A DNA stretch of 64,000 nucleotides from a virus, in the IMG/VR virus record IMGVR_UViG_3300025117_000050, positions 32,702 to 96,701 of that record. One strand, given 5' to 3'. Positions within the stretch are counted from its first letter, which is position 1; every line of letters starts with the position of its first letter. Below, in pieces: positions 6,764 to 12,905 of the stretch. The position numbers and the translations under genes were made by a program. The notes beneath the pieces were generated by a model. The model searched no databases and was not told the origin of the DNA. It was given only the letters and a program-made list of their open reading frames with translations.

Positions 6764-6895
6764 TTACAAAAATTAACATAATATTAATATAAAAAATGAT
6801 TGCATAGGACGAACTCTGGTTATAATATATATTATAAAGCACTATAGAAGTGTTACAAAAGTGTAAAATAATATATATTATAAGGAGTGATTTTA

Positions 6896-7336
6896 ATGAT
6901 TATTAAAACTCAAACTGCTAATGCTGTTAATGCTCAATGTTATAGGAAAGAGGAAGAGGTTGATTGGAGGTCGTGGTGTCCTAAACGTGGAGAGATTTAT
7001 TTGTGTCAGTTAGGAAATGAAGGTTTATTATATTCAGAAATTAAGGGTTATCGTCCAGTTTTAATAGCATCAAATGATATAGCGAACAGGCATAGCCCAG
7101 TAGTTACTATAATTCCATTAACTTCCAGTCAAATAAAAAATAACTTACCTGTTCATGTTAAAGTAGGGGTAGAAGAAGGGTTGCGAAATTTGAGTTTAAT
7201 TTGTTGCGAGCAGACTAAAACTGTGTCAAAAAATAGAATGTTTATAAACGGTAGTTTAGTTAAAATATGCAAATTAAGTAATGAATTAATGTGTAAAGTG
7301 GACAACGCATTAAAAATACAATTCGGATTAGTTTAA
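6896..7336 (+). CDS. PemK/MazF-family endoribonuclease, no adjacent antitoxin
   Basis: KRGEIYL...SEIKGYRPVLIASND..N..SPVVTIIPLTS...HV...CEQTKTVSK.R; ATG at 6896 follows AAGGAG. Confidence 0.88.
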   Translation: MIIKTQTANAVNAQCYRKEEEVDWRSWCPKRGEIYLCQLGNEGLLYSEIKGYRPVLIASNDIANRHSPVVTIIPLTSSQIKNNLPVHVKVGVEEGLRNLSLICCEQTKTVSKNRMFINGSLVKICKLSNELMCKVDNALKIQFGLV

Positions 7337-7483: not shown

Positions 7484-8842
7484 TTGTTAGTTAAAAATCA
7501 AAAAGTTAAAGTTAAATGGAATGGAGCACATAGAAAATATTATGAAGAAAAAGGTTATCCATTTACTAATTATGGTGATGAATTAGAGATAGACATAAAA
7601 GATTTAGCACCAAAAAGTCAAAAATATGTTTTAGTTAGTTGTGATTATTGCGGTATACCATTTATGAGGAGGTATTGTAATTACAATACAAGAAAAGAAA
7701 AATACGGTAAAGATGATAAAGATTGTTGTGATGATTGCAGAGTACATAAAAGAGAAGAAACATGTTTAGATAAATATGGTTTTAAAAATGCTGTTCAAGT
7801 AGAAGAAATACAAAATAAAATAAAAGAAACTATTAAGGAAAAATATGGAGTAGAATATATATCTCAAGTAGAAGAAATTAAAAATAAAAAGAAACAAACT
7901 TGTTTAGATAGATATGGAGTAGAATATACCTTGCAAGTTCCAGAGATTAGAGAAATGATTATAGAAACTAATATAAATAAATATGGAGTTGAAAATCCAT
8001 TTCAAAATGAAGAAATTAAAGAAAAAATCAGACAAGTCAATATGGATAAATATGGTGTAGAATATCCAATGCAATTACCTGAAATAAGAGAAAAAAGTCA
8101 AGAAACAACTTTTAAAAATCTTGGTGTTAAATATGCTATGCAATCTTATAAAACACAAGAAAAAAATAAACAATCTATTCAAGATAAATACGGATATACA
8201 AATATTTTTCAGATACCAGAGATAAAAGAAAAAATAAAGAAAATTAATATTAAAAAATATGGAGCGGAAAATCCTTTAAATAATAAAGAAATTAGAGAAA
8301 AAGCTAATAAAACTATAAAAGATAAATATGGTGTTGATAATGTTTCACAGAATCCAGAAATACAAGCAAAAATTAGACGTTCATTTTATAAAAATGGTAC
8401 TACTCCTACTTCAATTCAACAAAGATATATTTGTTTTTTAGTAAACGGTAAATTAAATTTTCCTATTGGAAGAACAAATGCAGATATATTGATAAATAAT
8501 AATATAATTATTGAATATGATGGTGGTGGACATAATCTAAGTGTAAAAATAGGAAATATAACGCAAGATCAATTTAATAGAAAAGAAATTAAAAAATATT
8601 ATTTTTTAAAAAGTAAAGGATATAAGATTATTAGAATTGTATCTGCTAAAGATAATTTACCTAAAGAAGAGAAAAGATTAATTGATGCTATAAATATAGC
8701 AATTGATTATTTAAATCAAAATCATTCTTGGTTTGAAATAAATATTGATGATGGAAAATTAAGATGTATTTGTTATGAAAAAGATTATAATTTTGGAGAA
8801 TTAAGAAGAGGAACAAAAGAAAATTTAGCTATAAATACATAA
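7484..8842 (+). CDS. Probable free-standing homing endonuclease: Zn-binding N-terminus, KYGV repeats, Vsr/DUF559-like nuclease C-terminus
   Basis: CDYC...CCDDC; about nine ~20-aa KYG(V)E repeats; C-terminal ADIL...IIEYDGGGH...GYKIIRI. Confidence 0.7.
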   Translation: MLVKNQKVKVKWNGAHRKYYEEKGYPFTNYGDELEIDIKDLAPKSQKYVLVSCDYCGIPFMRRYCNYNTRKEKYGKDDKDCCDDCRVHKREETCLDKYGFKNAVQVEEIQNKIKETIKEKYGVEYISQVEEIKNKKKQTCLDRYGVEYTLQVPEIREMIIETNINKYGVENPFQNEEIKEKIRQVNMDKYGVEYPMQLPEIREKSQETTFKNLGVKYAMQSYKTQEKNKQSIQDKYGYTNIFQIPEIKEKIKKINIKKYGAENPLNNKEIREKANKTIKDKYGVDNVSQNPEIQAKIRRSFYKNGTTPTSIQQRYICFLVNGKLNFPIGRTNADILINNNIIIEYDGGGHNLSVKIGNITQDQFNRKEIKKYYFLKSKGYKIIRIVSAKDNLPKEEKRLIDAINIAIDYLNQNHSWFEINIDDGKLRCICYEKDYNFGELRRGTKENLAINT

Positions 8843-8881: not shown

Positions 8882-9475
8882 TTGATTGAATTTATTATAG
8901 GAGCATTTTTATATGCTAAATTTAAAAAAGGTTATAAGTTAAAATACATATTTAAATACCCATACATATTTGCGATAATACCACCTTTATTATGTGTTTT
9001 ACTATACATATATTTAGAATATTGTGTTTTTAATCAGCAATATTGGTTTTTCCCTTATCAACATATAATAAAGACTACAACGCTTATAAGTTATGTTCCG
9101 TTGATTTATATATATAATTTATATTATAATGATATATATGAAAATGATACATTAAAATCATTTTTAACATCTCCTGCTAGTAAAACTACATTTTGTTTAG
9201 GATTAGGCTCATTTTTAAACTATATGGCAATTATCTCTAACAATATGAAAATGCCAGTATTTCCCAGTAATTGTTATTGGACTGGTTATATTAAACCTGA
9301 ATTCATTAATGATGGTTTACATGTGCTAGGTGATGCTTATACTAAAGCAATCCCCTTATGCGATTGGATCGATTTTGGAATATATGTAGCTAGTCCAGGT
9401 GATATATTAATAAGATCATTTGCATTTTTAATTATTTATCATTCTATAAAAAATTCTAATAAAATGATAAAATAA
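8882..9475 (+). CDS. DUF5317-like integral membrane protein
   Basis: Hydrophobic; GSFLNYMAIISNNMKMPV...H...PLCDWI...SPGDILI pattern. Confidence 0.7.
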   Translation: MIEFIIGAFLYAKFKKGYKLKYIFKYPYIFAIIPPLLCVLLYIYLEYCVFNQQYWFFPYQHIIKTTTLISYVPLIYIYNLYYNDIYENDTLKSFLTSPASKTTFCLGLGSFLNYMAIISNNMKMPVFPSNCYWTGYIKPEFINDGLHVLGDAYTKAIPLCDWIDFGIYVASPGDILIRSFAFLIIYHSIKNSNKMIK

Positions 9476-9478
9476 TTG

Positions 9479-9507
9479 TTGACACATAATTAACTCTGTG
9501 GTAATAT
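9479..9507 (+). promoter_or_regulatory. sigma-A-type promoter for the sensor-agrD unit
   Basis: TTGACA-17 bp-TAATAT with TG extension. Confidence 0.6.
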
Positions 9508-9543
9508 ATAAATAGAAAAAGTTGCTAAGGAGTTGATAGAGAA

Positions 9544-10338
9544 ATGATACATGATATTACAAATGCTTTGTTAAATTTTTTACTTGTAAGTGTTTTGGAG
9601 GAGTTTGTATGGTTGTTAATAACCATAATATTATTAAAAAGATTTGATTTGCTTGATAGATATAGATGGAAAGAGAGTATGCGAGAATTTTTAATACCTA
9701 TCTTACCAACTGCACTTTATATCAATTTATCTAGATATGTTTTACATATGCCTAGAATAATAATATTATTTGGATGTATATTTATATTTTATGGTTTGAC
9801 ATTATATATAATAAAGAAAAATTCATTTATAGATGAAAAATTACCATATTTAAAAATATTAATGTTTGTATTTATAGGTATTCTTATTATAGGAATAACA
9901 GAATTGATTTATATGCCAATAATTTTATATATTATACAACAACCAGTAACAATAATGAATCAAAATATTTTAATGAATTTTGCATTTTCAATACCATCTA
10001 GAATATTTCAAATATTATTAATTCTTGCATTAATTTATAAATATAATGAAATTAAATTATTCAGCAATATAATAAAAGATAAAGTATTATTAATTATTAC
10101 AGTGTTGTTTTTAAGTATTATATTGCTAATAGTATTTATTACAACAAAAATTATTCATAGTTATTGTTTAATTTTAAACTTTTCTTTATATTCACAAATA
10201 TTAATTGGAATTAGCATAACAACAATTATAACATTAATAATATTTTTTTATCTTATTCCAATTAATTATTTAATAAATAAAATGTTTTTACTTAACAAAT
10301 CACATCAAAATATGTTTGATGATGATTATATAGATTAA
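9544..10338 (+). CDS. Multi-pass membrane protein resembling an AgrC N-terminal sensor domain, without HisKA/HATPase
   Basis: About 7 hydrophobic segments over 264 aa; directly upstream of the agrD-like ORF; ends in acidic tail NMFDDDYID. Confidence 0.55.
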   Translation: MIHDITNALLNFLLVSVLEEFVWLLITIILLKRFDLLDRYRWKESMREFLIPILPTALYINLSRYVLHMPRIIILFGCIFIFYGLTLYIIKKNSFIDEKLPYLKILMFVFIGILIIGITELIYMPIILYIIQQPVTIMNQNILMNFAFSIPSRIFQILLILALIYKYNEIKLFSNIIKDKVLLIITVLFLSIILLIVFITTKIIHSYCLILNFSLYSQILIGISITTIITLIIFFYLIPINYLINKMFLLNKSHQNMFDDDYID

Positions 10339-10359
10339 AATAGAAAGGAGGGAAATTTC

Positions 10360-10479
10360 ATGAAAAAGTTTGCAATTATTACTTCTTTAATTGGTATTAT
10401 CGGCATTATCTGTGCAAATTGTATTAATTCTGCTTGGACATTTAACCAACCGAAAGCACCATCTATGTTAGTTAAGTAA
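10360..10479 (+). CDS. agrD: AgrD-like cyclic lactone autoinducer propeptide, 39 aa (not in ORF track)
   Basis: AGAAAGGAGGG RBS, then MKKFAIITSLIGIIGIICANCINSAWTFNQPKAPSMLVK: hydrophobic leader, S-A-W-T-F core, QPKAP tail as in clostridial AgrD; agrB 1.4 kb downstream. Confidence 0.88.
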   Translation: MKKFAIITSLIGIIGIICANCINSAWTFNQPKAPSMLVK

Positions 10480-10496
10480 TTTATAACTACATAGAA

Positions 10497-10536
10497 TATT
10501 TATAGTAGAGGATGATTGTTTTCTCTACTATAAATA
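10497..10536 (+). terminator. 14-bp hairpin after agrD
   Basis: TATTTATAGTAGAG / CTCTACTATAAATA perfect inverted repeat. Confidence 0.7.
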
Positions 10537-10556
10537 CAAAAAATAAATATAAATAC

Positions 10557-10585
10557 TTGTATTCTGGAGGATAGTATGGTAAAAT
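10557..10585 (+). promoter_or_regulatory. sigma-A-type promoter for the HTH-MazF gene
   Basis: TTGTAT-17 bp-TAAAAT with TG extension. Confidence 0.5.
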
Positions 10586-10631
10586 AATAGATGTAATATA
10601 TATAAAATATTAAATTGAGGAGTGATTAATA

Positions 10632-11528
10632 ATGTCAATATTATTTGGTAAGAAGAATGTATTAAAACCTACTTCTACAAATTCTATTTCTGAAATAACA
10701 AAGAAAGAGTTAGCTTACAATATAAGAGTTGCCGTAGGTCATCGAAGTATTACTCAAGTCTGTAATATATTAAAAATGGTCGATCCAAAACCATTAGTTG
10801 ACTTAATAAAAATGAATTATAATGAATTACCTGATAGACAATTACTTAGAAAAATTGCATCTGCAAGCGAAGGTAGGGTTTCTTATCAAAACCTTTATTC
10901 TGTCTGCGGTTATTCCGAATTTGATTCTGAAGAAGATCGTAGTTGGGCAAAGTGGGTTCCTGAACGTGGTAGTTGTTATATGATTGATTTAGGATGGAAT
11001 ATGGATAGTGAGCAAAATTCTGTGCGTCCGGCAATAGTGATGCAAAACAACAAAGGCAATCAATACTCAGGAACAACCGTTATTATCCCTATATCTTCTC
11101 GTTCTAAAAAATTTTCTTCACAGATTCATGTATTATTAGAAAAAGAATTAGGATTTTTACGGGAATGTCAATGTTTTCCAGAACAAATTCGCTGTGTTTC
11201 AAAAAGGAGGTTCTTCTATAATTCTGTACCTTATAAAATCACTACTTTACCAGAACATAAATTATTAGAAATCAAAAACGCACTTGAGTTTGAACTAGGT
11301 TTTGAGCCTTTATATTTTGACGAAGAAAAAATATTTAAATTAATTTCTCATATTCGTTCTTTAGAAAATAATATTAAAATCAAAAAATCACATAATCTAA
11401 TTGATATATTAAATCAAAAAATGGATGATCTAAAAGAATACTGTTCAAAATATCATAAGAATCACAAGATTATCTTACAAGAATACGATAGAATCAACAA
11501 TTGCGGTTACAATGCAGTATCCATATAA
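10632..11528 (+). CDS. XRE-like HTH / PemK-MazF fusion protein with helical C-terminus
   Basis: N-term AVGHRSITQV...PDRQLLRKIASASEGRVSYQNLYSVCGY resembles clostridial XRE repressors; middle ERGSCYMIDLG...SEQNSVRPAIVMQNNKGN...IIPISS...EQIRCVSKRR is PemK/MazF. Confidence 0.8.
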   Translation: MSILFGKKNVLKPTSTNSISEITKKELAYNIRVAVGHRSITQVCNILKMVDPKPLVDLIKMNYNELPDRQLLRKIASASEGRVSYQNLYSVCGYSEFDSEEDRSWAKWVPERGSCYMIDLGWNMDSEQNSVRPAIVMQNNKGNQYSGTTVIIPISSRSKKFSSQIHVLLEKELGFLRECQCFPEQIRCVSKRRFFYNSVPYKITTLPEHKLLEIKNALEFELGFEPLYFDEEKIFKLISHIRSLENNIKIKKSHNLIDILNQKMDDLKEYCSKYHKNHKIILQEYDRINNCGYNAVSI

Positions 11529-11590: not shown

Positions 11591-11932
11591 ATGATAATCT
11601 TTGATGAAAAACAATTAAAATACTTATTTAATAAATACAAAATAAGATATAAAATATTTGAAGAAACAAATATTCTACTTATAGATAGTGGTCTTGATGA
11701 GTGGTTAATCAAGTATCAACATGGAAGAGATCAACCATATTGCCTTATGCACAAAAATAAATTAAAACAAACTAAAAGGTTCCATGTGCAGAGATGGTTG
11801 TCAAATTTTTATCAATCACTTGATAGTCTATTGTCACATAAAAATATTTTTGTAGATCATTCAAGTTCAAAAAATACATATAAAAAATATAGAAATAATA
11901 AAATAAATAATAAAAGGAGAAAAAGTTGTTAA
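11591..11932 (+). CDS. Basic hypothetical protein, overlapping the agrB start
   Basis: 113-aa ORF, AAGGAG RBS. Confidence 0.65.
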   Translation: MIIFDEKQLKYLFNKYKIRYKIFEETNILLIDSGLDEWLIKYQHGRDQPYCLMHKNKLKQTKRFHVQRWLSNFYQSLDSLLSHKNIFVDHSSSKNTYKKYRNNKINNKRRKSC

Positions 11933-12720
11933 AATATATAAAAAACTACATAATAACATTTCGTTATATCAAACTATTCTCATATTGGAATGCAAGATAT
12001 TTGCATAACAAACTAAAAGAAGAAAGAATTAGAGAATCACAAAACTTACATAATCCACATAAAGAAAAACATAAATATTATTATATATTGCAAATGATAA
12101 TTAAAAAATTATTTCAAATAATTAATAAAATAATTTCTTTAACTCCATTAGGAAGAAAACTATCATCGTACATAACTGAAAAATATTCACAATATAAACA
12201 GAAAGAGAAAAAACCTAAAAAAATATACAACAGATACACCTACTATTATGGTCTTCAAATAATCATCGGAGGCATAAATAAATTCCTTCTACTAATCATA
12301 CCAGGCTTACTATTTAACATCTTGCCGCAACTATTACTAACCACGTTATCATTTGTATCACTAAGAATATGGACTGGTGGTCTGCACTACAATTCTTATA
12401 CCAAATGCAGCTACATATCACTATTATCCTTCACACTCACAGCACTACTATCAAAATACATCATATTAAATCAATTTATCACTATGTCAATATTTCTATC
12501 TGTATTTATATTAATTTTAATCTATGCCCCTGTAGAACATCCAAACAGACCAATAAAAGAAAAAGAAAAAATTAAATACAAATTAATCGCATTATTTGTA
12601 TTAAGCACCTTAACTATTATCTATATGTTTACAAATAATGTTATTATCTGTAATTCTATTATATATGGGATATTATTAGCAGGTATAATTATGTTACCAA
12701 TTATAAATAAACTAAGATAA
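11926..12720 (+). CDS. agrB: AgrB autoinducer-processing membrane peptidase with basic N-terminal extension
   Basis: YGLQII, LRIWTGGLH...TKC (catalytic His and Cys), YAPVEHPNRPI signature. Confidence 0.92.
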   Translation: MLKYIKNYIITFRYIKLFSYWNARYLHNKLKEERIRESQNLHNPHKEKHKYYYILQMIIKKLFQIINKIISLTPLGRKLSSYITEKYSQYKQKEKKPKKIYNRYTYYYGLQIIIGGINKFLLLIIPGLLFNILPQLLLTTLSFVSLRIWTGGLHYNSYTKCSYISLLSFTLTALLSKYIILNQFITMSIFLSVFILILIYAPVEHPNRPIKEKEKIKYKLIALFVLSTLTIIYMFTNNVIICNSIIYGILLAGIIMLPIINKLR

Positions 12721-12851
12721 TTATTAACATAATTTCGTAAATGGTCGATAAATGTCGGTAGGTGCGTATTGTTAATATGCTAAATATTATATAGAATAAT
12801 AGTATTAAAACATATTAATCACAAATTAAATTAAAATATGAATTTAGGCTA

Positions 12852-12905
12852 TTGTTTTTTTATTATTAAGGTATTATAATAGAACAAATATACAAACAAA
12901 TGTTC
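12852..12905 (+). promoter_or_regulatory. Promoter with tandem LexA (Cheo)-like boxes just downstream of -10
   Basis: TTGTTT-17 bp-TATAAT, then GAAC-AAAT-ATAC (12882-12893) and AAAC-AAAT-GTTC (12894-12905) versus consensus GAAC-N4-GTTC. Confidence 0.55.

Follow-up and report, generated by a model that had tools for sequence, protein, structure and literature searches.

The peptide gene and its source

The question raised by this locus is whether a 39-codon open reading frame (ORF) in the DNA of a large phage encodes an AgrD propeptide and, if so, which ring would be made from it, by which enzyme, and which protein would read the product. The source is a 96.7-kb IMG/VR virus record with a CheckV completeness of about 49%, and its bases 32702-96701, the whole stretch of 64,000 nucleotides that was analysed, are referred to here as the window. 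The GC content of this phage DNA is 25% and the + strand carries all the long ORFs of the window. PHROG matches to a DNA polymerase, an NAD-dependent ligase, helicases and an integrase-fold protein confirmed that the sequence belongs to a large phage.

The initial annotation had proposed a 39-aa ORF with a strong ribosome-binding site, and both are present as claimed:

10345-10352, + strand: ribosome-binding site AAGGAGGG, read from the sequence and kept in the related loci L002 and L003
10360-10479, + strand: peptide ORF of 39 aa, MKKFAIITSLIGIIGIICANCINSAWTFNQPKAPSMLVK

The GGAGG of the ribosome-binding site ends 8 nt before the ATG. The same ORF has also been called, without a name, by gene callers in metagenomes, and a word-based search returned two unnamed 39-aa proteins that are 97% and 87% identical to the window peptide. 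A metagenome scan gave three related loci, namely L002, with 87% peptide identity, and L003 and L004, with 62% along its full length. Compared with that of L002, the peptide gene of the window differs synonymously at 14 codons and non-synonymously at 5; third positions account for 17 changes and second positions for 0, and its NG86 dN/dS is 0.03 as against 0.28 for the adjoining gene of a 264-aa protein, here called X. The other two frames of the ORF are closed by stops in all three sequences compared. The low dN/dS, the balance of synonymous over non-synonymous differences and the conserved ribosome-binding site argue for a real gene, and on this comparison of codons the ORF is judged to be translated and under strong selection.

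Assignment to the AgrD family

An AgrD HMM had been named in the initial annotation as one means of checking its reading, and in curated form it does not recover the peptide. No match to Pfam AgrD, NCBIfam or TIGR04223 was obtained with the window peptide even at E 10 (for TIGR04223, with the whole record), so that it lies below the TIGR04223 cut-off of 19 bits. The L003 peptide reaches 13 bits with this model, 7 of the 10 phage homologues tested pass the cut-off, and the L052 peptide scores 21.9 bits; its identity to the window peptide is 49%, and the two have VINSAAWLHQPKAPSMLVK-type sequence in common.

The AgrD reading itself is upheld by profiles made from bacterial sequences, which align the ORF from end to end. 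An independent HMM was built from 30 bacterial AgrDs taken from TIGR04223-positive genomes of one Bacillota order, and with it the peptide ORF ranked first among the 583 small ORFs of the window (13.6 bits, E 1.6e-3), the runner-up scoring 4.2 bits. The alignment was global and brought S24 to the position of the ring Cys, with N-Q-P-K-A-P matched to Y-Q-P-K-x-P. Using hhalign, the window sub-clade (4 sequences) matched 24 bacterial AgrDs with a probability of 94.1% (E 1.2e-7), and the whole phage family (14 sequences) matched bacterial AgrDs with 99.0% (E 6e-18) in the same register. Simpler searches returned little: BLASTP of the window peptide against one bacterial AgrD gave no alignment, the one PHROGs match, to the unnamed family phrog_17065, was weak (E 0.006), and comparison with GenBank phages gave no match, either by megablast of the region or by tblastn with the peptide (limit E 10) or the AgrB (limit E 1e-3).

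From these profile alignments the ORF product is assigned to the AgrD family as a propeptide of the clostridial type, and it was filed there although the threshold of the curated HMM was missed. It resembles the clostridial TIGR04223 AgrDs in length, MKK start, hydrophobic leader, five-residue core and QPKxP follower, and differs from them in having N-Q-P for Y/H-Q-P, P-S-M-L for P-K-x-L and I-N for x-A before the ring.

Ring residue, core and follower

The peptide can be divided into three parts:

10360-10428, + strand: AgrD leader, residues 1-23 (MKK and a hydrophobic helix, ending C-I-N), aligned to bacterial AgrD leaders
10429-10443, + strand: predicted core S24-A-W-T-F28, the ring residues, with S24 on the ring Cys column and 25-28 variable
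10444-10479, + strand: C-terminal follower N29-QPKAPSMLVK and stop, matching the bacterial consensus and presumed to be the part recognised and removed by AgrB

Ser24 stands five residues ahead of N29-Q-P-K-A-P, as the initial annotation had noted, and its designation there as the ring residue agrees with its place on the ring-Cys column in both the HMM and hhalign alignments. The alignment of 14 phage sequences is invariant at M1, K2, K3, S24, Q30, P31 and P34 and nearly so at K32. S24 is the sole invariant residue of the core; positions 25-28 read AWTF, AWSF, AAWF, FMWL, WFFA and others among the phage peptides. An invariant Ser followed by variable positions 25-28 is what one expects of a core that determines specificity and contains a fixed nucleophile. 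The tail had been described as basic and acid-free, which is correct (two Lys, no Asp or Glu), but it is not a peculiarity of this peptide, as the follower consensus of 24 bacterial AgrDs is YQPKxPKxLxK, likewise basic and without acidic residues, and this is the norm for the clostridial class.

Ser occupies the ring position in two (L039 and L040) of the 30 best-scoring bacterial AgrDs and in at least 10 of 41 lower-scoring bacterial matches, and two further Ser-type AgrDs were seen beside the sampled ones (L012, and the second peptide of L044, with ring SAWVF). Overall the Ser type makes up about 17-20% of the 71 AgrDs sampled in one Bacillota order, and by these counts it is a common minority form in bacteria. 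Since this type is known from clostridia as a minority form, the window peptide is an ordinary member of its family in an unusual place, a phage. All aligned phage AgrDs are of the Ser type; since these phages share ancestry, this uniformity counts as one maintained event and not as many.

A different core was met in several bacterial AgrDs of the sampled order (L073, L075, L078, L084, L086 and L089), where six residues, CWFWSY or near variants, are followed by YQRECPK and not by YQPK. The same CWFWSY has been reported as the core of Rc-AIP1 in Ruminiclostridium cellulolyticum (PMC8251862).

A conserved cassette around the peptide gene

The peptide gene is part of a cassette with the following further elements:

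8882-9475, + strand: DUF5317-family membrane protein (Pfam PF17248, 9e-13), first gene of the cassette, in the same position in 11 of 14 viral loci
9479-9507, + strand: promoter-like site (TTGACA, 17 nt, TAATAT with TG) ahead of X and the peptide gene, from a consensus scan (10 of 12 matches)
9544-10338, + strand: X, membrane protein of 264 aa with seven helices, from an uncharacterised family, its gene immediately preceding that of the peptide
10497-10536, + strand: hairpin after the peptide gene, with a 16-bp stem and without a U-tract, from folding
10632-11528, + strand: MazF/PemK-core protein of 298 aa between agrD and agrB (PF02452, 3e-17), with a homologue in 14 of 14 viral loci
11591-11932, + strand: 113-aa protein from the ORF list, its end overlapping the agrB start, with weak homologues in 5 of 14 viral loci
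11926-12720, + strand: AgrB, presumed processing enzyme (membrane endopeptidase-cyclase; PF04647, 9e-37)

The order X, peptide, HTH-MazF, AgrB is kept in 17 loci of related phage or metagenome DNA outside the window, which are L002, L003, L004 and 14 IMG/VR loci; these 14 viral loci, each with a homologous peptide, lie on contigs of 25-230 kb. The scan of viral contigs worked with a 13-sequence alignment, a 50-sequence one being too diverse, and gave no match when X alone was the query. Two genes were noted upstream of the cassette in the window: a second, stand-alone MazF/PemK gene at 6887-7336 (PF02452, 5e-23) and, just before the cassette, the gene of a 452-aa DUF7487 repeat protein at 7484-8842.

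The promoter-like hexamers and their flanking motifs are kept in L002 and L004. Within 9479-9543 the blocks AACTCTGTG ... AATAGAAAAAGTT, between the hexamers and the X start, are also kept in these two loci; together they make up an imperfect AACT/AGTT palindrome spanning the -10, which could be an operator. The initial annotation had given the peptide gene its own hairpin, and this is indeed found, with a stem counted as 16 bp in place of the 14 bp first stated (15 Watson-Crick pairs and 1 G-U, an 8-nt loop, -20.9 kcal/mol, z -5.5 against shuffles). L002 has retained it, as has L003 by means of compensatory changes, and an Rfam search of 9300-10800 gave no match. The stretch from the agrD stop to the hairpin contains a TACAT motif, and a conserved extended -10-like element, TGGTAAAAT, is found at about 10557-10585, after the hairpin and before the MazF-fusion gene. 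Judged by the promoter-like site before X, and by the hairpin and the extended -10 behind the peptide gene, these two genes seem to form one unit.

The AgrB of the cassette scores 126.6 bits against a Pfam cut-off of 23. It carries LRIWTGGLHYNSYTKCSY, in which the GGLH-x6-C catalytic motif is present, and R-GG-H-x6-C is kept in the 11 related phage AgrBs examined. In S. aureus numbering the catalytic residues of AgrB are H77 and C84. The nearest bacterial relatives are 31-37% identical to the phage AgrB, and a sequence search for a solved AgrB relative found none. The gene is not adjacent to the peptide gene but lies 1.45 kb downstream on the same strand, with two genes between, and no AgrD was found in 12720-12900, immediately behind agrB. 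Translational coupling is suggested by the TTG start of agrB, which overlaps the stop codon of the gene for the 113-aa protein. The phage AgrB also has an extension of some 70 residues at its N-terminus (YIK.YIITFRYIKL..., window 11926-12130), conserved with L003.

Protein X, a probable partner of AgrD

No Pfam, NCBIfam or PDB sequence match was found for X. Its profile recovered 163 representatives, all of 240-330 aa and none of kinase length. The AlphaFold model (pLDDT 91) shows seven helices in the membrane and, at the C-terminus, a long helix, and with it neither Foldseek (best E 1.6) nor a wide VIA-align search (best Z 7.5, on partial helical overlaps) gave a credible match. The ESM Atlas holds X in "hypothetical protein" clusters only, 76% of them viral. 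The one invariant residue of the family is E19, with P18, P151 and P229 close to invariant, and no Cys, His or Ser is conserved. A comparison by hhalign of the X family with an AgrC-type kinase, for which the template was a single sequence, gave a probability of 0.45%; weak as such a test is, it lends no support to homology between the two. X was also considered as a divergent AgrB, a candidate that was rejected on finding that the His/Cys of the window protein (LHMPR...GC) are not conserved in L004. A complex prediction of X with the propeptide, run without controls, returned a score of 0.00 and was counted neither for nor against an interaction.

The gene neighbourhood is more informative. 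The gene immediately before AgrD is X in at least 24 of 30 bacterial loci and in 14 of 14 viral loci, whereas AgrB has this position in just 2 of the 30 bacterial loci. Of 149 genomes of the same Bacillota order, 125 are TIGR04223-positive and 129 have an AgrB. Bacterial AgrDs outnumber AgrBs and equal X in number; the MAG G001, for example, has 6 AgrD, 7 X and 2 AgrB, and other genomes have 10-11 AgrD with 2 AgrB. Judged by gene order and gene counts, X pairs 1:1 with AgrD genes in bacteria and phages, and the simplest reading of this would be that AgrB is a shared cyclase and X a peptide-specific partner. X is then most likely the receptor for the released peptide, judging from the same gene arrangement, and a part in export or leader processing is a possible alternative. 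The 96.7-kb record, about half the genome, contains no HATPase_c_5 (PF14501) or LytTR (PF04397) domain, and with neither an AgrC-type kinase nor a LytTR regulator in this record the locus does not qualify as canonical agrBDCA.

Some further arrangements of X were seen. One MAG has three tandem X-AgrD pairs (L007, L009 and L011; G001:C2:62521-65751), and XRE-type HTH genes often stand just upstream of bacterial X-AgrD (L008, L010 and L016). A second X after agrB, without an AgrD-like ORF behind it, occurs in several phage loci (L049, 6764-7597; L054, 4001-4852; L055, 3998-4861; L056-L058, 6611-7432), and such second copies could be orphan partners that read a foreign peptide.

Proposed processing and alternative explanations

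The best explanation of the locus as a whole, and one that we consider likely, is that the ORF encodes a clostridial-type AgrD propeptide with a Ser24 ring that is processed by the AgrB of the cassette. Coding, homology over the whole length, the invariant Ser24 and a co-resident AgrB with its His and Cys are established, and the processing steps are drawn from the established chemistry of AgrB and the precedent of Clostridium thermocellum. The leader would insert in the membrane, and the phage AgrB would cut between F28 and N29 and hold S24-F28 as an acyl-enzyme, which would be attacked by the Ser24 hydroxyl to give the five-residue lactone S-A-W-T-F. A cut of the signal-peptidase type would then remove the leader. 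If made directly before S24 it would release cyclo-SAWTF (predicted [M+H]+ 593.27), and if made after A19, a residue that is Gly in L003, it would release NCIN-c(SAWTF) with a four-residue tail (predicted [M+H]+ 1037.45). For a ring with an IN tail the predicted [M+H]+ is 820.40. At -1, Ala is found in 10 of the 14 phage sequences aligned and in the majority of bacterial AgrDs, and the window sub-clade has I-N|S. In those 10 phage peptides x-A|S looks like a classic -3,-1 site and would give a tail-free ring; for the window peptide the leader cut is uncertain because Asn, not Ala, precedes Ser24. The released peptide would most likely be read by X, presumably co-transcribed with it, and AgrB would be common to several AgrDs.

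Other products of the same gene have to be weighed against this lactone. One is a homodetic cyclic pentapeptide, which would arise from the same precursor and AgrB step if an O-to-N acyl shift followed a cut before Ser24. O-to-N acyl shifts are slower than S-to-N shifts, which counts against this product, as does the -1 Asn of the window peptide, with which a tail may remain and block the shift; the Ala directly before Ser in 10 of the 14 aligned phage homologues fits a tail-free product and so speaks for it. Tail-less clostridial thiolactone AIPs do rearrange to lactams by an S-to-N shift, and the fate of tail-free Ser-lactone AIPs is stated as open (PMC8251862), whereas the product in C. thermocellum was reported as a lactone (PMC5322536). 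We regard the rearranged product as rather unlikely. The initial annotation had also allowed a larger thiolactone from the two Cys of CANC, closed through Cys21 (C-I-N-S-A-W-T-F) or Cys18 instead of Ser24. Cys is a better nucleophile than Ser, and both the window and L002 have C18 and C21, but positions 18 and 21 are Phe and Val in L003 and L004, where the whole peptide is Cys-free, and Cys upstream of the ring is absent from most other phage homologues. With both upstream Cys lost in relatives the larger ring is unsupported; moreover the AgrD profile assigns C18 and C21 to the leader and the bacterial set has rings of five, rarely six, residues, so that we give this thiolactone hardly any credence.

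Two further explanations concern the roles of the proteins. The peptide could be matured by X, as a new AgrD-processing or export protein, with AgrB serving something else. This would suit the position of X, and not AgrB, directly upstream of AgrD in most of the bacterial loci and all of the phage ones, and 5 of the 125 AgrD-positive genomes show no AgrB, these being drafts that are maybe incomplete. It is nevertheless improbable, since X has no conserved Cys, His or Ser for an acyl intermediate and AgrB is found in 129 of the 149 genomes and in every phage cassette, with its catalytic motif intact in the window and the 11 others examined. Finally the ORF could encode a small non-secreted membrane protein, either a subunit or anchor of X or a membrane toxin, its likeness to AgrD being a relic. 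The N-terminal two thirds are indeed a plain hydrophobic helix and the curated AgrD models do not match the window peptide. Conservation is however concentrated in the C-terminal I22-K39 (ring Ser, QPK-P and tail), which argues for a processed propeptide and not a membrane anchor, and AgrB is always co-resident; we hold this explanation to be very unlikely.

Comparison with known systems and significance

The closest precedent for an AgrD propeptide with a Ser24 lactone is Clo1313_2818 of Clostridium (Acetivibrio) thermocellum, for which a Ser-lactone pentapeptide was confirmed by LC-MS/MS, with cuts at A24|S25 and F29|Y30 (PMC5322536). Likened to it by its published description and not by direct sequence alignment, the window peptide shares the Ser ring, the five residues ending in Phe and the x-Q-P-K-x-P that follows, and neither gene is adjacent to its agrB, that of C. 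thermocellum being beside no recognisable agrB or agrC (PMC5322536). The two differ in that Clo1313_2818 is chromosomal with Ala at -1 and Tyr at +1, whereas the window peptide is encoded by a phage and has Asn at both positions. The Clostridioides difficile phage phiCDHM1 carries agr3, composed of agrD, agrB and agrC with no response regulator, and is therefore similar in having phage-borne agrD and agrB without such a regulator (PMC3901668). It has however a full AgrC histidine kinase (PMC3901668), in place of which the window cassette has the seven-helix X and the HTH-MazF gene. The bacterium with the most similar ring, SAWVF in L044, has 34% GC and an X that is 26% identical to the window X.

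The AIP of Staphylococcus intermedius/pseudintermedius is a Ser-lactone, not a thiolactone, made by AgrB. The AgrD of these staphylococci has an acidic follower and belongs to an agrBDCA operon, and it has no sequence relation to the window peptide beyond the family. Ser-lactone AIPs have been cited as "rare cases" (PMC8251862).

Phage-borne agr genes, as in phiCDHM1, and Ser-lactone AIPs, as in staphylococci and C. thermocellum, are thus already known. It is less expected that such a cassette should run through a whole clade of large environmental phages, with the Ser type throughout and X at its centre in place of AgrC; its presence in at least 17 loci outside the window makes agr signalling a clade-wide trait of these phages. 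What is newer is that AgrD genes pair 1:1 with an undescribed protein, X, rather than with AgrB or AgrC, and this pairing may explain "orphan" AgrDs such as that of C. thermocellum.

The cassette stands between genes of the MazF type and one with a recombinase fold, a setting that suggests signalling among phages, or between phage and host, with an effect on the phage life cycle. As a tentative extension, possible but doubtful at present, the large, very low-GC phages of this clade, with contigs of up to 230 kb, would make a Ser-lactone AIP by means of a phage AgrB and read it through the kinase-less X, wired to an HTH-MazF nuclease beside lysogeny genes. If it proves true, it would be phage-phage communication based on agr chemistry, an analogue of arbitrium, and X would supply the receptor so far lacking for the many bacterial AgrDs without a neighbouring AgrC.
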